This document shows, in pieces, positions 1,802-33,299 of a stretch of DNA of 64,000 bases. The translations under genes were made by a program, and so were the position numbers. How positions within the stretch are numbered: position 1 is the first letter of the stretch; the number at the start of each line of letters is the position of its first letter. The notes beneath the pieces were generated by a model. It ran no database searches, was not told the origin of the DNA, and saw nothing but the letters and a program-made list of their open reading frames with translations. This DNA comes from a phage, in sequence record NC_094493.1, one strand, 5' to 3'.

Positions 1802-2031
1802 TCCTCCACAACTTCAAGGCCTTTACCGCCTCGCTCTGGCAGATTACTTAAAGATAGGTAATACATATAATCAGGAGAGATCCTGCCAGACTCTGCACCT
1901 GCAGATAGTAAATCTTTTCCCTTAACCATGACAACATTATCGTTTGCAGATAGTCGTTTTGCTTCCACAATTTTACCAACGCAGTCAACCAAGGAAGGGT
2001 ACCCTAAATCTGTAAGAAATTTAACTTTCAT
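1798..2031 (-). CDS. hypothetical small protein
   Basis: 77-aa ORF overlapping the start codon of 1268..1801. Confidence 0.3.
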   Translation of the reverse strand: MKVKFLTDLGYPSLVDCVGKIVEAKRLSANDNVVMVKGKDLLSAGAESGRISPDYMYYLSLSNLPERGGKGLEVVEE

Positions 2032-2070
2032 GCTACCTCCTACCTCTACCGTCCCTGGTAAGATAAATTA

Positions 2071-3093: not shown

Positions 3094-3554
3094 ACAAAAT
3101 ATGCATATGCCTGCCCATCCGTTCTACCATTGGATTGGAATGACGGGCGCTTAGATATTGTGATCACAGTGGTAGGTGCATTATCAAGCCACCATTCAAA
3201 TCTGGCCTTGCTTTCCAGAAAATTAAGACGCAAAAGCATAATAACTACGTCGGCATCTTTCAACGCCTTGTCCACAAACTCACGAGCCAGGCTGTACGGC
3301 GGGTTGGTGATAATACAGTCAACATGGTTGTATTCTGTATTCAGATAGTCAACACCTTCTTGGATTTCTCCCCATGCAGATCCTAATGGCATACGGGAGT
3401 AGAACACACCTGAGGCACTATTCCTGCAAGGCTCTAAGTAGGTCCAGTCTTCTGGGAACGTAATAAGGTCATACAGCCCTTCTGCACACCACTCCGGTGT
3501 CACATACTCATCGTAGGCGTTACGTTGTTCATCAGGTTTTCTAGCACAAGTCAT
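3021..3554 (-). CDS. small phage Dam-like DNA N6-adenine methyltransferase (putative)
   Basis: 177 aa; motif IV DCIITNPPY; size typical of small phage Dam-type MTases; motif I not confidently located. Confidence 0.5.
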   Translation of the reverse strand: MTCARKPDEQRNAYDEYVTPEWCAEGLYDLITFPEDWTYLEPCRNSASGVFYSRMPLGSAWGEIQEGVDYLNTEYNHVDCIITNPPYSLAREFVDKALKDADVVIMLLRLNFLESKARFEWWLDNAPTTVITISKRPSFQSNGRTDGQAYAYFVWDKKNRLNLPPFMWLAPPEADLK

Positions 3555-3605: not shown

Positions 3606-4655
3606 TTAAGCTTCTTCGACAATTCCTGCACCCAGGATTTTTTCATTGAGCTCTTTTGCTGTTTTAATGATATTGTCCATCAGACGCTTGCGGGTCTTAT
3701 CTTTCACCTTAACCTCTTCACCGCCGTTCAGAGTAGTCTTCAATTGAGACAGAATATCCTGAAGTTCAACGACAGAGAATCTCTGCAGATCTTCTGAAGT
3801 AATCTCACCCAGGGCAATTCTGACGGTCTCGCCACTTTCCATCTGCAGATTCAGGAACACAGTGTGAACATCACCTTTCGAACCACCCGCTTTTGCAGAT
3901 TCAACCGCATGAACTAACTCATCTAAAGATGTGCACTGGTGAATCTCCGGAAGACCTGCTTCACCTAACACGCCTTCTTCATCACCTTTTGCCAGAAGCT
4001 TTTTCGGTTTTTGTCCGTTCTGGATGCGTTGTATGTTGCCTTCATCCAGAATAATAGCTCCAGTGCGTGCTGCCAGCTCTTCTCCGTCCAACCACACTTC
4101 GCCACCAGCTGTGATGGATGCGATCTCATCTTCTGTTAGCACCCCACCGTAGTATTTTTCGATCAGGCGTTCAAAACGTTTTTTCCAGTAGCTGACCTGA
4201 GTATTCATGTTCACACCGTTACCATAAGTGCCACCTTGATAGTAGTGGAACATAAACTCTGTGTCCGGAGCCACAGTACGTTCTTTACAACCAAGCCATA
4301 AGATTGTTCCAGCAGAGCAGCACATCCCTTCAGCATGTGCAACAACGCTTGCCTGAGACTCTCGGAATGCCTGCAGATAAGCCATTGCAATGTGCACGCA
4401 ACCCCCAGGGCTATTGATGATCACCCGAATGCTTTCTTCCGGCTGAGCCATACGGATCGTCTGCAGACGAGACATATGATCTTGTAAGTCTTCCAAATCG
4501 TCGATATAAAGAACGTGGTCAACAACAGGTGTTGGGTAGCTGTATGTTTCCATGATACCGCCCGGCATACCAAACATTTTATTACTCATAGGTTCGAAAC
4601 CGTTCTGTTTTTCTTTCATGCCGTGTACCATGGCTCTGCGAGGTGTTAAATTCAT
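3606..4655 (-). CDS. ClpP-like serine protease with C-terminal charged/helical extension
   Basis: 349 aa; ClpP-type VIINSPGG and catalytic-Ser context GMCCSAGT; about 120 aa of charged C-terminal sequence. Confidence 0.55.
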   Translation of the reverse strand: MNLTPRRAMVHGMKEKQNGFEPMSNKMFGMPGGIMETYSYPTPVVDHVLYIDDLEDLQDHMSRLQTIRMAQPEESIRVIINSPGGCVHIAMAYLQAFRESQASVVAHAEGMCCSAGTILWLGCKERTVAPDTEFMFHYYQGGTYGNGVNMNTQVSYWKKRFERLIEKYYGGVLTEDEIASITAGGEVWLDGEELAARTGAIILDEGNIQRIQNGQKPKKLLAKGDEEGVLGEAGLPEIHQCTSLDELVHAVESAKAGGSKGDVHTVFLNLQMESGETVRIALGEITSEDLQRFSVVELQDILSQLKTTLNGGEEVKVKDKTRKRLMDNIIKTAKELNEKILGAGIVEEA

Positions 4656-4715
4656 GAGAAATCCTTAATATTGGAAGTTGAAAGCTATTTATTTAAACCT
4701 GATTCACATTTACCT

Positions 4716-5128: not shown

Positions 5129-5917
5129 TTACTCGGAAACAGGGGTCCAAATATGATTTGCACGATCCTCAATAAGATTGAGTGCGATCTGACGACCCAA
5201 CCCAGAACGAACGACATCGTCTGGACTATCAAAGCTGATCATTCCAACCTCAGGATCTGGATGACGAGTAAAGAAATCCGTCACCCATGCAAGGCCAGAT
5301 TTACCAGGGATGTCACGTTGGCTATTATCACCCATAATTACAAGGGTGGCTTGATCAGAGATCCTTGTGATAATTGACAACATTTCTTCAGGGTTAGTTT
5401 GCTGTGCCTCGTCAATCAGGACAAAGCATCGCTCATCGAAACTACGACCACGAATGCTTTCAACTTCACAAATCTCGATACGGCTGTTCTGACCGTCTCC
5501 CAGCATTGCGGCAAAAGCACCTTTGCCAACACGACGACAAATCGTGTCCATCATGCTTCGAAGATAGGGCCACAGTTTCTGCATTGCATTTCCAGGTTTA
5601 AATCCTGAAGTCTTTCCTGTCTGAACGTAAGGACGTGCAACAATAATCTTATCAATCTCGTTCTTACGCAGAAGATCACCTGCATATGCAGATGCCATGA
5701 ATGTCTTACCGGATCCAAACACACCGTTTACAATAATAATCTTACGTGACCCTAGATAATCAAGATACTTTTGCTGCTTCTTATTCATTGGTCGGAGAGC
5801 TGGAGCGGTGTGCTCTCTTTCGTCAGCAAATTTCTCAGCAGCCTTACGCAGGCGATCAGATTTGCGAGCCTCTCTAGCTTCATCACGCATGCGTTTTGTT
5901 TCTTTAGCTCGACCCAT
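5129..5917 (-). CDS. phoH: PhoH-like ATPase
   Basis: 262 aa; Walker A GVFGSGKTFMA and Walker B-like FVLIDEAQ in PhoH-type arrangement. Confidence 0.85.
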   Translation of the reverse strand: MGRAKETKRMRDEAREARKSDRLRKAAEKFADEREHTAPALRPMNKKQQKYLDYLGSRKIIIVNGVFGSGKTFMASAYAGDLLRKNEIDKIIVARPYVQTGKTSGFKPGNAMQKLWPYLRSMMDTICRRVGKGAFAAMLGDGQNSRIEICEVESIRGRSFDERCFVLIDEAQQTNPEEMLSIITRISDQATLVIMGDNSQRDIPGKSGLAWVTDFFTRHPDPEVGMISFDSPDDVVRSGLGRQIALNLIEDRANHIWTPVSE

Positions 5918-26109: not shown

Positions 26110-26871
26110 TTAAAGTTCCATAAAGTTTTCTACAGTTTCAATAAATACTTTATCAGAGAAAGCGTCAACAGCACCGTTAAACCATACAGGGATCCCGCGA
26201 TCCTCATATTGATAAAGGTCGCTACGTGAAATGCCACTTCCATCTGCACTCTGCGAATCATACTTGTTTACAATCAGCAGTTTTGTGCCTTTACAAGTAG
26301 CAGGAAACAATTCCCAGTTAAAATTAATAACTGTGTTAGAACAACCTACCAGGATAACCATATCATTGCTTGTGAGAGATGTCAACAGGTCATACATGTC
26401 TGTATACTTAGGAGCAACCTCACCGAAGAACACTACATTGGGCTTAACCCAGGTATACTTACCTGTATCTACCTCCGTGTATCCGATATTTTTAATTACA
26501 TCATTACCTTCAGCATCTTCGTAGGTGATTTCAGGCAAATACCCGTGGACATGTAAAATATCTTCATGTTTTACACCAGCACGCTCCAGCAAATCATCTA
26601 CATTGGTGGTAAGGTTGATCACACGACCAGACCAGCGGGAATACCACTCAGCGATCCGAAGATGTGCAAGGTTAGGATCAACACTGCCCAGAGCTACACG
26701 ACGTGCATTGTAAAAGTCATGCACCTTATAGTAGTTCTTGGCAAAGGTGTGGATGTTGCACACCTCATCTATGCTGAAATTCTCCCACATTGCAGTACTA
26801 CCAGATCGGAAAGTGGGAATACCAGATTCAGCGCTCAAACCAGCACCGGAGATAATAATCAGTCGTCGCAT
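26110..26871 (-). CDS. Sir2-family NAD-dependent protein
   Basis: 253 aa; sirtuin NAD-binding GAGLSAESGIPTFR, TTNVDDL and catalytic HG; no zinc-ribbon Cys pairs seen. Confidence 0.8.
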   Translation of the reverse strand: MRRLIIISGAGLSAESGIPTFRSGSTAMWENFSIDEVCNIHTFAKNYYKVHDFYNARRVALGSVDPNLAHLRIAEWYSRWSGRVINLTTNVDDLLERAGVKHEDILHVHGYLPEITYEDAEGNDVIKNIGYTEVDTGKYTWVKPNVVFFGEVAPKYTDMYDLLTSLTSNDMVILVGCSNTVINFNWELFPATCKGTKLLIVNKYDSQSADGSGISRSDLYQYEDRGIPVWFNGAVDAFSDKVFIETVENFMEL

Positions 26872-26879
26872 AAGTGCCC

Positions 26880-27230
26880 TCAGTAGATGTTTTGTTTAAT
26901 CTCTATTCCAAACTTTTTAAACGAGTCAGCTGCAAGCATGAATTTACGAGCCGCTGATGGATTAGAAGTATGTACGAAAATCTTCACGTTGTCAACCACG
27001 GGAGGCTTACCGAATACAAATTTTTCCTCCAACATGGATAGGCAATCGTATCCTTCGAATACTTCTCCTAGGTCGTTGTCCATATGCCACTCAGAAACGC
27101 GTCTGTAGAGCTTTCCCTTATCGTTAATAAAATCCATAAACTCGGAGGAATTCTTCAGCCAAACAGCGTCTGGGAGCCCGTAATTTGACGGATCTCTTAA
27201 GTCATCTAGCCACACAATCAACTTCTTCAT
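26880..27230 (-). CDS. small alpha/beta protein with receiver/flavodoxin-like acidic motifs
   Basis: 116 aa; LIVWLDDLRDP, HMDNDLGE, IFVHTSNP; ATGA-coupled to rnlA and 9 nt upstream of the Sir2 gene. Confidence 0.35.
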   Translation of the reverse strand: MKKLIVWLDDLRDPSNYGLPDAVWLKNSSEFMDFINDKGKLYRRVSEWHMDNDLGEVFEGYDCLSMLEEKFVFGKPPVVDNVKIFVHTSNPSAARKFMLAADSFKKFGIEIKQNIY

Positions 27231-28162
27231 TGCATATAGTTCTCGTTGTGGAAATAGTAATCAAGTATCTCACGGCGTTCCTGCTCCAGGAGGCAGTTCC
27301 ACACATCCTCTGTGTAATTGCTACGAATGAAGTTTACCATGCCGTAAAACTCTTCGTCAACACGTTTAAAGATATCATCATCCCAAATCTTCCAAGCTTT
27401 ACCCCTCATTACGGCCTTCCGTGCCAGATAGTATGGAGACTTGATCTTCAGCTGCAGATCATAAGGGTAGTAAGGCTTACGAATCATATACCCTTCACCT
27501 CTTGTTTCTGCAGCTAATTCTTTTGCATAGCTGAACGGAATTTCACGCACAGTGTGAGGACGTTTTGCACCAAGGTATTTGGCAATCCCATCTAAAGCTG
27601 CTTCTGGTAGCATTATTCCAGAATCATTATATCTGCAACCTATCAAATATGCGCCATGATCTTCCTGAACAATATGCGGATCTGAAGGGTGACAAATTTC
27701 AAACATGAATGTCATGTTTTCATTGCCCATAACCTTCTTGATAAGATCTAAATTACCACATTGCTCTTGGATGGTTTCCTTTGCAAGGTTACAATATGGA
27801 GAATCAAGAGACCCGGTTGTTGAGAACAATAGTTCACCTTTATGAGATGATACCACACCGAGGAATCCGTTCTTTTTCTCTACCGCAGTAACAAGTTTAC
27901 TGTCCGGTAGGTTGGTGGAGTTTTCTCCTAAGTTGAATACTTTTGTGAAAGGCCATGCCACAACATTCCCCTCATTGCCAACAACAATACCTCGGCACTC
28001 CAGTAAACGCGGAGACAAATGCCACAGATTGTTGTAGAATACTTTTCTGGCATATTTATAGATCTTTAATCCAAGATCTGGATAATACCGACTGGTTACA
28101 AGACCTTTGTCTACTAGGTCATCTGCATTAAAATACTTCATCATACGTTCCTCATTTGTCAT
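27227..28162 (-). CDS. rnlA: RNA ligase 1 (T4 RnlA-like)
   Basis: 311 aa; RLLECRGIVV...WPFTKVFNLGEN parallels T4 Rnl1 ALECRGIMF...FFNLNEN; motif I lysine in VEKKNG. Confidence 0.8.
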   Translation of the reverse strand: MTNEERMMKYFNADDLVDKGLVTSRYYPDLGLKIYKYARKVFYNNLWHLSPRLLECRGIVVGNEGNVVAWPFTKVFNLGENSTNLPDSKLVTAVEKKNGFLGVVSSHKGELLFSTTGSLDSPYCNLAKETIQEQCGNLDLIKKVMGNENMTFMFEICHPSDPHIVQEDHGAYLIGCRYNDSGIMLPEAALDGIAKYLGAKRPHTVREIPFSYAKELAAETRGEGYMIRKPYYPYDLQLKIKSPYYLARKAVMRGKAWKIWDDDIFKRVDEEFYGMVNFIRSNYTEDVWNCLLEQERREILDYYFHNENYMQ

Positions 28163-28205
28163 TTTGTCAGTCTATCCTGCCACACAAATAACCTAGTGTC
28201 AACAC

Positions 28206-28234
28206 TTGAAATTAACAAAACAGTTAGGTATACT
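28206..28234 (+). promoter_or_regulatory. sigma70-type promoter
   Basis: TTGAAA-17nt-TATACT upstream of kinase gene. Confidence 0.45.
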
Positions 28235-28262
28235 ATCATTAAAATTAAAACGGAGGGTTGCT

Positions 28263-28673
28263 ATGTCTAAAATGCTATATATCGTGCGTGGTCTGCCAGG
28301 GTCTGGCAAATCAACACTGGCAAATGCGCTATCTTTAGAAGGTCTGTATCCACATTTTGAGAACGACATGTTCTGGTATGACGATGACGGCAATTACAAC
28401 TGGGATGCAAGTAAAGTAACACTCGCAGCAAAATGGTGCAAAGATAACGTAGAAGATATGATGCGTATGGGATACGACCGTATCGTGGTAAGTAATACGT
28501 TTACAAAAGAAAAACATGTGCAGGAATATGTTGACATGGCAATCAGTCACGGGTATAGTTATACCGTGATCGTGGTTGAAAACCGCCACGGTAATAAAAG
28601 CATTCATGATGTTCCAGACAAGGTTGTGGATCGTATGGAACGCCAGCTTAAAAACTGCATTAAACTTAAATGA
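28263..28673 (+). CDS. P-loop kinase, polynucleotide 5'-kinase-like
   Basis: 136 aa from ATG after GGAGGG; Walker A RGLPGSGKST as in T4 Pnk kinase domain GCPGSGKST. Confidence 0.65.
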   Translation: MSKMLYIVRGLPGSGKSTLANALSLEGLYPHFENDMFWYDDDGNYNWDASKVTLAAKWCKDNVEDMMRMGYDRIVVSNTFTKEKHVQEYVDMAISHGYSYTVIVVENRHGNKSIHDVPDKVVDRMERQLKNCIKLK

Positions 28674-28680
28674 GGAATGT

Positions 28681-29235
28681 ATGAAATACTTTGTAACAAG
28701 CGACACACACTTTCTCCACCAGCGGGTCATGGAGTTTGATTCATGTCAAAAACACAGATCTCAGTATGATCACAATCTTGACAGTATGAATGCGGGAATC
28801 ATCACCAAGTGGAACTCTGTTGTGTCACCTGCAGACACTGTGTTTCACTTGGGAGATATTGCGTGCACTAATGATAAGAATATCAACAAATTGCTCCCAG
28901 ATGTTCTAAATATGTTGAACGGACATATTATTCTTGTTCGTGGTAACCATGACACAAGGACGACTGTCAGAATTATGAAAGAGTTCGGTCATGAGGTTGT
29001 AGATTATTACGAGCTTCGCCACAACAAGAATTTGATCTGTATGAGCCATTACCAGTTTGCAAAGTGGAACAGAAAGCCTCACGGATCAGTCCAACTGTTC
29101 GGTCATGCTCACGGAACCACACAGCAGTTGTTTGGCAGGCAGTTTGATGTCGGTTGGGATGTGTGGGGGAGACTCTTACCATTAGAAGAGGCATACCGTA
29201 TTGCAATGAGTCTTGCTATTGACAGCGGGGAGTAA
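28681..29235 (+). CDS. calcineurin-like metallophosphatase
   Basis: 184 aa from ATG 7 nt after kinase stop with GAGGA RBS; motifs SDTHF, GDIA, GNHD, GHAH. Confidence 0.75.
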   Translation: MKYFVTSDTHFLHQRVMEFDSCQKHRSQYDHNLDSMNAGIITKWNSVVSPADTVFHLGDIACTNDKNINKLLPDVLNMLNGHIILVRGNHDTRTTVRIMKEFGHEVVDYYELRHNKNLICMSHYQFAKWNRKPHGSVQLFGHAHGTTQQLFGRQFDVGWDVWGRLLPLEEAYRIAMSLAIDSGE

Positions 29236-31735: not shown

Positions 31736-32074
31736 ATGGCGGATACAACTAAAAAGCGTCGCCGTAGAGGCAGACCTCTGAAAGAGGAGTCCAACGCCAT
31801 TCAGCTAGAGAAGAACATCCTTGATATGAAGGAATCTTTTATAGCGATGGTTCCAGAAGCTCACAAAGTTTTAAGAGAGCTGATGTTGGACCCGAAAACC
31901 AAACAAAATATTCGTCAAAGCATTGCAGAGTATGTTCTTGATAAGGCAGACCGAATGCAGGAAGAATATGATGAGATGTTTGGTGAAGAGGAAGAGGTGG
32001 TAGTGGAAGAGGCTGAAAAACCAGCACCTTTTATGCCATTTACTACAGAAATACAGCCTGTTAGCAATAGCTAA
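31736..32074 (+). CDS. small DNA-binding protein with AT-hook-like motif and acidic tail
   Basis: 112 aa from ATG; N-terminal KKRRRRGRPLKEE, C-terminal EEYDEMFGEEEEVVVEE. Confidence 0.4.
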   Translation: MADTTKKRRRRGRPLKEESNAIQLEKNILDMKESFIAMVPEAHKVLRELMLDPKTKQNIRQSIAEYVLDKADRMQEEYDEMFGEEEEVVVEEAEKPAPFMPFTTEIQPVSNS

Positions 32075-32083
32075 AATATTTTC

Positions 32084-32112
32084 TTGACAAACTTTGCTTA
32101 ACAGTGTAATAT
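32084..32112 (+). promoter_or_regulatory. sigma70 consensus promoter of tRNA cluster
   Basis: TTGACA-17nt-TAATAT about 60 nt upstream of first tRNA. Confidence 0.6.
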
Positions 32113-32170
32113 TGTAAACATGGTCTCCCACCTTTTCTGGCGGCTAAGGTGTAAAAGAAAGCCACCCAGT

Positions 32171-32245
32171 GCCCTGTTAGCTTAGTGGATAAAGCAGCGG
32201 CCTTCTAAGCCGTTGACACTGGTTCGAGTCCAGTACGGGGTGCCA
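32171..32245 (+). tRNA. tRNA-Arg (anticodon TCT)
   Basis: cloverleaf drawn by hand: acceptor gccctgt/acggggt, anticodon loop cttctaa, T-loop ttcgagt, encoded CCA. Confidence 0.75.
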
Positions 32246-32249
32246 AATT

Positions 32250-32336
32250 GGGGAGTTATCCCGTAGAGGTAGCGGTGTAGACTGTAAATCTATTGTCATT
32301 GCGACTCGGGTGGTTCGACTCCACCACTCCCCACCA
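32250..32336 (+). tRNA. tRNA-Tyr (anticodon GTA), long variable arm
   Basis: acceptor ggggagt/actcccc, anticodon loop ctgtaaa, T-arm ggtgg-ttcgact-ccacc, CCA; 87 nt. Confidence 0.75.
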
Positions 32337-32450
32337 AATTTATATTTTTAGATGCATAAATAATACAGATAATGGCATTGATATTTATCGTCGTTTATAC
32401 TAGTCACTAACTGCTCGAAAATCAGTGTCATTATCAGTATAATTTATAAA

Positions 32451-32541
32451 GGAGGGTAGGGAGCAATGGTGCTCAAGCGGTCTTGAAAACCGTCCCGTTG
32501 AGGATGACTCGATGATGGTTCGATTCCATTACTCTCCGCCA
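32451..32541 (+). tRNA. tRNA-Ser (anticodon TGA), long variable arm
   Basis: acceptor ggagggt/actctcc, anticodon stem gcggt/accgt with loop cttgaaa, T-loop ttcgatt, CCA; about 91 nt. Confidence 0.7.
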
Positions 32542-32639
32542 CATTGTTGACCTTGTAATTAAGCGAAAGCCGGAAGCAGAACCGGATTATCAAATGTTAC
32601 AGTCGTCATCGCCGACTAGCAACATGGTCAACATACTGA

Positions 32640-32736
32640 GCTAGGTAAGCCCTTTGGCAAGGGCGAGGATTTTTAATCCTGAAAATAGACGAGGTAGTCG
32701 TTGAATACATAGGTGGTTCGATTCCATCACCTAGCA
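32640..32736 (+). tRNA. atypical tRNA-like gene (possible tRNA-Lys TTT variant, about 97 nt)
   Basis: acceptor gctaggt/acctagc, D-arm gccc...gggc, T-arm ggtgg-ttcgatt-ccatc; anticodon arm aggatttttaatcct ambiguous; about 30-nt extra arm; no CCA. Confidence 0.45.
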
Positions 32737-32743
32737 CCTTTTT

Positions 32744-32819
32744 GCTGATGTAGCACAATCGGTAGTGCAATTGATTTGTAATCAATAGGTTGTAGGTTCA
32801 AGTCCTGCCATCAGCACCA
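32744..32819 (+). tRNA. tRNA-Thr (anticodon TGT)
   Basis: acceptor gctgatg/catcagc, anticodon stem attga/tcaat with loop tttgtaa, T-loop ttcaagt, CCA. Confidence 0.75.
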
Positions 32820-32820
32820 A

Positions 32821-32895
32821 GGCCCTGTAGCTGGAAGGTTCAAGCAAGCGACTCATAATCGCCAGACGGTGGTTCAATTCCACCCAGGGCCACCA
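32821..32895 (+). tRNA. tRNA-Met/Ile2 (anticodon CAT), elongator-type
   Basis: acceptor ggccctg/cagggcc with paired 1-72, anticodon loop ctcataa, T-arm ggtgg-ttcaatt-ccacc, CCA. Confidence 0.7.
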
Positions 32896-32906
32896 AATAG
32901 TAAATA

Positions 32907-32983
32907 CTCCGCGTAGCTCAGCTTGGTAGAGCGCCTGATTTGGGATCAGGAGGTCGAGTGTTCGAATCACTCCGTGGAGACCA
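32907..32983 (+). tRNA. tRNA-Pro (anticodon TGG)
   Basis: acceptor ctccgcg/cgtggag, anticodon stem cctga/tcagg with loop tttggga, T-loop ttcgaat, CCA. Confidence 0.75.
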
Positions 32984-33029
32984 CTTTCAGTTATACTTTA
33001 AACATATACAAACAAAAGGAACCTTTAAA

Positions 33030-33299
33030 ATGTATACACTTAAAATTGTAGAGCGTGTAAATCCAACTCATACCGTAGATTTTCGTGACGATTTCAATCC
33101 TCTGGCTGTAAATCTTCGAGAGTCATATCATGAACTCAGCTGCGATGCAGTGGTGGTCTTTTTTGAAGACAACTCTGAAGGGGCGGTAGCTTGTGTTGTT
33201 GATAGTGAGCAGAAGTTTTATATTTACAGAGATGTAGATGCATACTTGATGAATGAAAATGCAGTTACTGTTAGAATCATCCACCGAGTGCCTCGATAA
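33030..33299 (+). CDS. hypothetical protein
   Basis: 89 aa from first ATG after tRNA-Pro (track ORF 32940 starts inside the tRNA). Confidence 0.35.
   Translation: MYTLKIVERVNPTHTVDFRDDFNPLAVNLRESYHELSCDAVVVFFEDNSEGAVACVVDSEQKFYIYRDVDAYLMNENAVTVRIIHRVPR

Follow-up and report, generated by a model that had tools for sequence, protein, structure and literature searches.

The element described here is an atypical gene of 97 nucleotides (nt) that folds as a transfer RNA with an additional arm, located among ordinary tRNA genes in a phage genome (NC_094493.1). It occupies positions 32640–32736 on the plus strand of the window, by which we mean the whole 64,000-nt stretch of DNA that was analyzed, and all features below are on that strand unless stated otherwise. 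Far from being a decaying gene, the element belongs to a family of five-armed tRNA-like RNAs that is conserved and confined to phages, and we have high confidence that this family is real, structured, and under selection. Our preferred explanation, to which we give a probability of roughly 0.4 as a whole, is that it would be a transcribed and constrained five-armed RNA, present once per tRNA array, that acts as a tRNA mimic or decoy. We note that this functional proposal is putative, as it is drawn from comparison of sequences and predicted folds.

Structure of the element

All of the helices that the original prediction had read from the letters of this sequence were found where it had placed them, including the acceptor stem, the D arm, the T arm, and a hairpin inserted in the variable region. 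The acceptor stem joins GCUAGGU (32640–32646) to ACCUAGC (32729–32735) over 7 base pairs (bp), three of which show double-sided compensatory change across the family. Positions 8 and 9 are AA in the family alignment (32647–32648), and position 8 is A instead of the usual U in all 24 family members. The D arm, GCCC-UUUGGCAA-GGGC (32649–32664), has a 4-bp stem and an 8-nt loop, and can alternatively be drawn in the manner of tRNA-Sec, with a 6-bp stem and the 4-nt loop UGGC, a fold that is both possible and predicted. Between the D stem and the anticodon-like stem lies an invariant G (32665), which can be read as position 26 or, opposite 32681, as a G.G mismatch at 27:43. The T arm, GGUGG-UUCGAUU-CCAUC (32712–32728), includes one compensatory pair and a C at position 56 that covaries with D-loop position 19. 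The canonical tRNA features present are a 7-bp acceptor, a D arm, a 5-bp T arm, a TPsiC-type T loop, and a G18/G19 elbow.

The anticodon-like arm, aggatttttaatcct (32666–32680), is 15 nt long compared with the canonical 17, and is 15–16 nt across the family. The two registers that had been proposed for this arm are both seen in the sequence and in the folds. In the first, a 4-bp stem (AGGA/UCCU) encloses the seven-membered loop UUUUUAA, with U33, anticodon UUU, A37, and A38; in the second, a 5-bp stem encloses a 5-nt loop. The span from the anticodon-like stem to the T stem measures 31 nt (32681–32711), close to the earlier estimate of about 30 and far longer than the 4–5 nt of class I tRNAs. 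It consists of an unpaired, A-rich 5′ linker, GAAAAUA (32681–32687), in which four of seven columns are invariant across the 24 sequences; the extra hairpin, GACGA-GGUAG-UCGUU (32688–32702), with 5 bp and a 5-nt loop; and an unpaired 3′ linker, GAAUACAUA (32703–32711), which contains the invariant AAUACAUA.

The acceptor 3′ strand is followed by the discriminator A (32736) and by CC (32737–32738), so that this segment spans 32729–32738, and then by five U (32739–32743). The element thus encodes no CCA, as had been noticed earlier, whereas all six neighboring tRNAs do. A terminator scan flags the T arm and acceptor followed by ACCUUUUU (window 32710–32743), and also the D-arm hairpin followed by GAGGAUUUUU (window 32649–32674). 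The U run 3′ of the element is specific to Vequintavirus and might affect 3′ end formation.

Minimum-free-energy folding gives the five-arm cloverleaf (z = −4.09 versus dinucleotide shuffles), and none of 200 shuffles was equally stable. Covariance scoring and ARAGORN, which had been suggested as a check on the element, gave a divided answer. The element exceeded the gathering score of the Rfam tRNA model (35.5 bits versus 29; E = 9.5e-4 for all 64 kb), with a 26-nt insertion in the variable region and the seven-membered loop UUUUUAA aligned with anticodon UUU. ARAGORN, however, reported 32640–32738 as a tRNA to which it gave no identity, through a different, non-conserved anticodon-stem register with the four-base anticodon "atcc". 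We rejected the ARAGORN fold because its stem (AUUUU/AAAAU) is impossible in the Seunavirus, Mydovirus, and Henunavirus homologues.

Distribution in phages

Twenty-four distinct homologues were recovered by BLAST, using the element and then its most distant match, and by motif scans that added viral and metagenomic contigs. They occur in Vequintavirus, Avunavirus (Av-05 and TH18), Seunavirus (PVP-SE1, GE_vB_MG, KE22, Csp-D17, and LNA4), Mydovirus (Mydo and K18PH07C1), Henunavirus (Hena1 and pEa_SNUABM_55), one N4-like Salmonella phage of the Schitoviridae, and metagenomic contigs. A family covariance model built from 16 members separated the family, with members scoring 90–114 bits and every ordinary tRNA at most 30 bits, and it found exactly one copy in each phage locus. 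Copies in the Seunavirus, Mydovirus, and Henunavirus lineages begin one or two bases past the CCA of the preceding tRNA. Searching 185,579 species-representative bacterial and archaeal genomes with a 22-position conserved motif gave no matches, and a bacterial origin was dropped on this basis.

The N4-like Salmonella phage vB_SenP_UTK0002 (OQ359892.1, 66353–66460) carries a Henunavirus-type copy inside its own tRNA array. Its occurrence in Schitoviridae indicates horizontal transfer of the RNA between unrelated phage families.

The unpaired linkers vary very little. AAUACAUA in the 3′ linker is invariant in all 24 sequences, including 14 that were recovered by BLAST without use of the motif, and both GAAAA and AAUACAUA are invariant or nearly so in phages of Escherichia, Salmonella, Klebsiella, Proteus, Cronobacter, and Erwinia. 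This conservation suggests a binding partner or tertiary motif that may itself be conserved. The hairpin between the linkers is exchangeable: three family members (L033, L037, and L044) combine a Mydovirus-type body with a Henunavirus-type arm, showing that extra-arm types have been swapped between scaffolds.

We also considered, and rejected, several specific interactions and origins for the insertion. Kissing of the anticodon-like loop (UCCA/GCCA) with UGGA/UGGC of the extra arm is available in PVP-SE1, LNA4, and the family member L027 but absent from KE22 and from the members L023, L033, and L037. Pairing of the 5′ linker with an invariant AUACAU is feasible only in Hena1-type and L048-type sequences (AUGUGU/AUGUA), not in the window, and is no feature of the family. 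If the insertion were an intron, a short anticodon arm would remain after its removal, and no bulge-helix-bulge motif is evident; we know of no enzyme for splicing of such an insertion. Finally, GAAAAUAG resembles the region upstream of the tmRNA resume codon, but the likeness is too short and lacks both a conserved UAG and a reading frame.

Covariation and selection on structure

Covariation was measured on a 16-sequence alignment for 24 proposed pairs. Across this alignment 99% of cells are paired, and in 11 of the 24 pairs both partners have changed. Of 500 column shuffles, none attained the observed percentage paired or the observed covariation score, and sliding the partners by one to three columns left at most two pairs of this kind. 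The same four canonical arms were predicted independently by RNAalifold.

Compensatory changes are found in the helices and also in the tertiary contact between the D and T loops. Three of the four core pairs of the D stem covary (GCCC/GGGC, GACC/GGUC, and GCGG/CCGC); the two extra U:A pairs of the possible 6-bp stem never vary. In the anticodon-like stem, three of five pairs covary, and the closing pair is U:A here, C:G in Seunavirus and Mydovirus, and C.A or U:A in Henunavirus-type sequences. The 19:56 elbow pair, formed by the second loop G (32657) and the T-loop C (32719), is G:C in 11 and U:A in 5 of the 16 sequences. Where it is U:A, the D loop has UGUC in place of UGGC and the T loop has UUAGAUU in place of UUCGAUU. 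The extra hairpin folds in all 24 sequences, with at least nine different stem sequences in three length classes. Within the group to which the window belongs, its apical pair is A:U or, in Av-05 and TH18, G:C, and other genera carry longer replacement hairpins at the same site.

An L-shape-competent scaffold is thus kept, comprising the acceptor, the D arm, the T arm, the 19:56 pair, and the extra hairpin between near-invariant linkers. G.U pairs are tolerated on the plus strand only, which identifies it as the functional strand. Taken together, the covariation of helices and elbow, the extra hairpin that always folds, and the strand-specific G.U pairs rule out a decaying pseudogene.

Variation of the anticodon-like loop

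On this one scaffold the anticodon-like triplets are UUU, UAU, UCA, UCC, and GCC, and they are not conserved among orthologues. The Vequintavirus copies, including that of the window, have the loop UUUUUAA with A73 and no encoded CCA, and those of Avunavirus have UUUAUAA with U73 or C73, also with no encoded CCA. Henunavirus, the N4-like phage, and some contigs have (C/U)AUCAAA, with A at position 33, followed at the 3′ end of the molecule by U73-CCA. In Seunavirus and Mydovirus the loop is six-membered (CAUCCA, CCUCCA, CUUCCA, or CAGCCA) and closed by C:G, again with U73-CCA. UUU and A73 therefore co-occur only in Vequintavirus, the Seunavirus/Mydovirus and Henunavirus-type relatives having U73, and most sister-lineage loops either lack U33 or are six-membered. 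Entropy of the anticodon-like loop is 0.81, compared with 0.13–0.18 in the D loop, T loop, and 3′ linker, and only the extra hairpin is more variable. That the loop is the least conserved unpaired segment, the extra hairpin aside, is the reverse of what is expected for a family of tRNA isoacceptors.

These comparisons qualify the earlier description of the element as tRNA-Lys-like. The UUU loop of the Vequintavirus copy agrees with it, but sister lineages carry UAU, UCA, or NCC on the same scaffold. Since the Lys-type loop is restricted to Vequintavirus in this way, we interpret the selected entity as a scaffold with a swappable cassette and not as tRNA-Lys itself. PVP-SE1 offers a further example, as it contains a normal tRNA-Gly(UCC) alongside its Gly-like element, which would therefore be unneeded for decoding.

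A putative mimic of tRNA-Lys

Decoding tRNAs follow near-universal rules, namely U33, a seven-membered loop, and a five-pair stem. We favor a non-decoding mimic because the scaffold stays constant while most cassettes break these rules. The discriminator and CCA are not conserved in the Vequintavirus/Avunavirus branch, which we also count against ordinary decoding. Under the favored explanation, the element would be co-transcribed with the tRNAs of the cluster and would mature as a tRNA does, through RNase P cleavage at the 5′ end, 3′ trimming, and CCA addition, and it would then serve as a mimic rather than an ordinary decoder. The Vequintavirus cassette may imitate the loop of tRNA-Lys(UUU), which is the commonest target of E. 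coli anticodon nucleases, and the RNA could act as a surrogate substrate, decoy, or inhibitor of these nucleases beside the healing-and-sealing enzymes of the phage. Three nucleases cut E. coli tRNA-Lys(UUU): PARIS AriB, which cleaves between residues 40 and 41, PrrC, and the bacterial Schlafen RorSlfn5 (PMC11464382, PMC11555353, PMC13056530), and phage tRNA-Lys variants rescue infection from PARIS and PrrC (PMC11464382, PMC11555353). In this context, the original prediction that a tRNA-Lys-like molecule could evade or decoy anticodon nucleases is plausible.

A more elaborate form of this proposal is a modular RNA anti-defense device, which we consider a somewhat doubtful extension. It would combine a rigid tRNA-shaped scaffold that host enzymes take for a tRNA, a linker-clamped hairpin that blocks cleavage or turnover, and an exchangeable bait loop that titrates or jams nucleases such as PrrC, RloC, PARIS, or Schlafens, and would thus be a decoy inhibitor of tRNA-targeting immunity made of RNA alone. 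The bait would then be tuned to the nucleases of local hosts, Lys in E. coli phages and Gly-like or UCA-type elsewhere.

Several observations weigh against a mimic or decoy. When the U:A closing pair is opened, the loop becomes canonical (U32 U33 UUU A37 A38) and, together with A73, fits the identity rules of LysRS. The phage has no other tRNA-Lys, so real decoding is possible. The stem AGGA/UCCU is unlike GUUGA/UCAAU of E. coli tRNA-Lys (host sequence from PMC11464382); since AriB recognizes the anticodon stem-loop and cleaves in the 3′ strand of that hairpin, the element would be a poor decoy for it. Some tRNAs of related phages also bear insertions while their anticodon arms are normal, and the insertion alone is therefore no argument against decoding. 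The element is also dispensable, having been deleted in Escherichia phage V18 (NC_041937.1, locus about 1150–1250) along with tRNA-Tyr and tRNA-Ser. At the V18 junction, AAATCTATTG is joined directly to GTCGTTGAATACATAGG; the resulting chimera begins as the 5′ half of tRNA-Tyr, continues as the 3′ part of the element, and is unable to form an acceptor stem.

Alternative explanations

The element could truly be an elongator tRNA-Lys(UUU), with a larger variable region than usual; charged by LysRS and reading AAA and AAG, it would provide an uncleavable substitute for destroyed host tRNA-Lys. We regard this as a tentative but realistic possibility. It follows the logic of the T5 tRNA-Lys, with the unusual stem and extra domain preventing cleavage, and the rescue of phages from PARIS and PrrC by phage tRNA-Lys (cited above) is in line with it. 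Several of the results already given also favor it: the Rfam tRNA threshold is passed with UUU aligned as the anticodon, A73 and UUU are paired in Vequintavirus only and suit LysRS, no second tRNA-Lys is present, and insertion-bearing tRNAs with normal anticodon arms exist in related phages. In addition, the annotation of BASEL phages names a tRNA-Lys reading AAA. However, the register that yields this loop has only four Watson-Crick pairs in the anticodon stem, or otherwise a G.G mismatch and no residue 26. The nearest relatives, in Avunavirus, have UAU, with a changed middle anticodon base and U or C as discriminator, and distant relatives that lack U33 or have six-membered loops are equally strongly conserved. 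The invariant linkers hint at a role beyond decoding, and CCA is not encoded.

Alternatively, the element may be a tRNA-shaped RNA whose role is unrelated to anticodon nucleases, with its linkers and elbow bound by a conserved phage or host factor. Candidate roles include a modulator of the ribosome or of translation factors, a non-ribosomal aminoacyl carrier, a regulator of RNases or tRNA processing, and a partner of the ligase/kinase module. We consider a role of this kind unlikely. The near-invariance of AAUACAUA and GAAAA across phages of six host genera fits such a factor, as do the U73-CCA encoded by most members and the exchange of extra-arm types between scaffolds. On the other hand, this explanation fails to account for the likeness to a real anticodon loop (Y32, R37, and A38) and for its change from lineage to lineage, and no specific protein partner was evident in the annotated 41 kb around the tRNA array of UTK0002.

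A pseudo-tRNA, which the original prediction had left as its alternative, would be a functionless remnant of a formerly larger tRNA array, and we find this highly improbable. Vequintaviruses do have fewer tRNAs than Seunaviruses (7 in the window versus 23 in PVP-SE1), CCA has been lost and the discriminator is variable in the Vequintavirus/Avunavirus branch, V18 is viable after deleting the element, and gene finders are at odds on its identity. However, all stem substitutions among the 24 distinct sequences, including eight distinct Vequintavirus/Avunavirus variants, keep pairing, the tertiary pair covaries, the linkers are invariant, and 94 of 128 records are at least 99% identical over the element. 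The alternative does not fit an RNA that is conserved in at least five Vequintavirinae genera and an N4-like phage, with helices and the 19:56 pair maintained by compensation.

Equally remote is a tRNA for stop recoding of the tRNA-Sec or suppressor type, or a decoder of quadruplets as the "atcc" of ARAGORN might imply. Like tRNA-Sec (RF01852), the element has a long extra arm and lacks U8, and its D arm may form a 6-bp stem with a 4-nt loop. Henunavirus-type relatives have the loop CAUCAAA, one base off the CUUCAAA of the Rfam tRNA-Sec consensus; they reach 39 bits on that model and have been annotated tRNA-sup(tca). Membership was dropped, as scanned members score 23–39 bits against a gathering score of 47 and nearby ordinary class II tRNAs score similarly, the acceptor/T domain has 12 bp (7/5) and not 13 (8/5), the discriminator is A or U and not G, and UCA occurs in Henunavirus-type copies only, the window copy having UUU and the generic tRNA model as its best clan match; for quadruplet decoding, the stem that ARAGORN requires cannot form in other genera.

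Comparison with known RNAs

The element and class II tRNAs (Ser, Leu, and Tyr) are both cloverleaves in which an additional paired arm separates the anticodon arm from the T arm, and both have a T loop of normal type, the elbow between G18/G19 and the T loop, and a place in a tRNA operon. They differ in how the arm is attached. Real class II arms have 0–2 unpaired bases at the base of the arm, whereas the variable region of the element is 31 nt (about 40 nt in relatives), with linkers of 7 and 9 unpaired nt. The element also has an anticodon arm that is 1–2 nt short, A at position 8, and a loop identity that is not Ser, Leu, or Tyr. We dropped class II membership because of the 7-nt and 9-nt unpaired linkers that flank the arm and the UUU loop.

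If the element is a surrogate or decoy, its closest functional parallels are the tRNA-Lys of T5 and SP15, which neutralize PARIS and PrrC and share a tRNA-Lys(UUU)-type loop, a non-host anticodon stem, and occurrence in virulent coliphages confronted with tRNA-Lys nucleases (PMC11464382, PMC11555353). Those RNAs are described as isoacceptors or variants that differ from host tRNA-Lys by substitutions near the anticodon stem-loop, and their rescue of infection has been shown experimentally; the element has a shortened anticodon arm, a 31-nt extra domain, and relatives with non-Lys loops.

The species 1 and species 2 RNAs of T4 (rnaC and rnaD) are likewise small stable RNAs at the end of a phage tRNA cluster, and to our knowledge their function is still not established. 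They are 139 and 119 nt long, and their predicted folds are not cloverleaves. T4 rnaC (NC_000866.4, locus 1909–2047, minus strand) has at its end a T arm of tRNA type, CCGGG-UUCGAAU-CCCGG, within a terminal helix, and is thus a further RNA of a phage tRNA cluster that partly mimics a tRNA. The family covariance model finds no match in either RNA, and homology was rejected on this basis.

Finally, the tRNA-like domains of tmRNA and of YrlA/Y RNA resemble the putative mimic in preserving the acceptor, elbow, and T arm despite the loss or replacement of anticodon function. The element differs from them in retaining a full D arm and an anticodon-like arm and in having no open reading frame. ARAGORN reported no tmRNA on the window and no Rfam tmRNA match reached threshold; the sole YrlA match (25 bits, cut-off 69) is to another part of the cluster.

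Genomic context and annotation

The window comes from an rV5-like myovirus of the genus Vequintavirus, and its bases 32000–33100 match Escherichia phage FFH2 with 100% and rV5 with 99.8% identity. Public records disagree on the element. The identical sequence is labeled tRNA-Lys (AAA) in BASEL phages and tRNA-OTHER, tRNA-TERM, or tRNA-???(atcc) in other records, and the rV5 and FFH2 records leave it unannotated. We found no description of the element in the literature on rV5-like phages and on tRNA-like or noncanonical phage tRNAs. About 18 "Campylobacter phage" records (MG065644–MG065682, host C. jejuni), which lack annotation, are 99–100% identical to E. coli rV5-like phages over the region, and these are probably mislabeled or contaminant assemblies.

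The cluster (32171–32983) was delimited with ARAGORN and Rfam and reads Arg(UCU)-Tyr(GUA)-Ser(UGA)-element-Thr(UGU)-Met/Ile2(CAU)-Pro(UGG). These are the only seven tRNA-type genes that ARAGORN reports on the window, and there is no other tRNA-Lys among them. A sigma-70-type promoter-like site, TTGACA-17-TAATAT (32084–32112; 10 of 12 matches), corresponds to P(tRNA) of the rV5 record and is probably the start of the transcript that would hold the element. Two gaps of about 100 nt each (32337–32450 and 32542–32639) contain no tRNA or Rfam match, and the first contains the promoter-like sites TCGAAA-17-TATAAT (32415–32443) and ATGGCA-18-TATACT (32372–32401). The gaps may represent internal promoters or remnants of lost tRNAs. 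The CAU tRNA (32821–32895) is called tRNA-Met by ARAGORN and the rV5 record and tRNA-Ile (ATA) in BASEL records, and may be a tRNA-Ile2 of the lysidine type.

An RNA repair module (26880–29235) sits 3.4–5.8 kb upstream of the element. It encodes, on the minus strand, a cyclic-phosphate-processing receiver-domain protein of the cREC_REC type (26880–27230, Pfam) and an Rnl1-family RNA ligase (27227–28162; Pfam, and RNA ligase in the BASEL record). On the plus strand are a P-loop kinase (28206–28673; Pfam, polynucleotide kinase in the BASEL record) and a calcineurin-like metallophosphoesterase (28576–29235; Pfam, phosphoesterase in the BASEL record). A Sir2-family protein (26110–26871, minus strand) adjoins this set. 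Kinase and phosphatase are joined in T4 Pnk and are separate proteins in the window. A functional link between the module and the element is putative. A healing-and-sealing system of the same type is the answer of T4 to cleavage of tRNA-Lys by PrrC (PMC10264068).

Other unusual genes occur in these phages. The terminase large subunit of rV5 (DQ832317.1, locus 3588 onward) is annotated as three joined pieces (ORF64ABC), which suggests intervening sequences in this gene. On the minus strand of Seunavirus PVP-SE1 (NC_016071.1, 59500–68200), we observed more insertion-bearing tRNAs (4433–4517, 4579–4664, 5139–5219, and 3395–3476 of this segment). Their anticodon arms look normal. Among them are a tRNA-Lys(UUU) of 86 nt with a D-loop hairpin, a tRNA-Asn of 85 nt whose variable arm is base-paired, a tRNA-Trp of 81 nt, and a Met/Ala-like gene of 82 nt. 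These phages may commonly elaborate the structure of their tRNAs.

Implications

Recent work has shown that phages use tRNAs as weapons against tRNA-cleaving immunity (PARIS, PrrC, and retron Eco7), and the tested cases are described as versions of ordinary tRNAs. The family described here points to a distinct solution, with a conserved scaffold, a rigidly held extra arm, and a loop that is swapped between genera, which has spread through Vequintavirinae and into an N4-like phage. Model phages are at hand (BASEL Bas55 and relatives), making a direct test feasible. Should the element instead be a decoder, it would show that a natural tRNA can accommodate a variable region of 31–40 nt and a shortened anticodon arm, a point of interest to tRNA engineering. 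As a decoy or an uncleavable surrogate, it would represent a new class of RNA anti-defense factor, and this would account for the conflicting labels that gene finders have given it, from Lys to "OTHER" to "TERM" to nothing at all.

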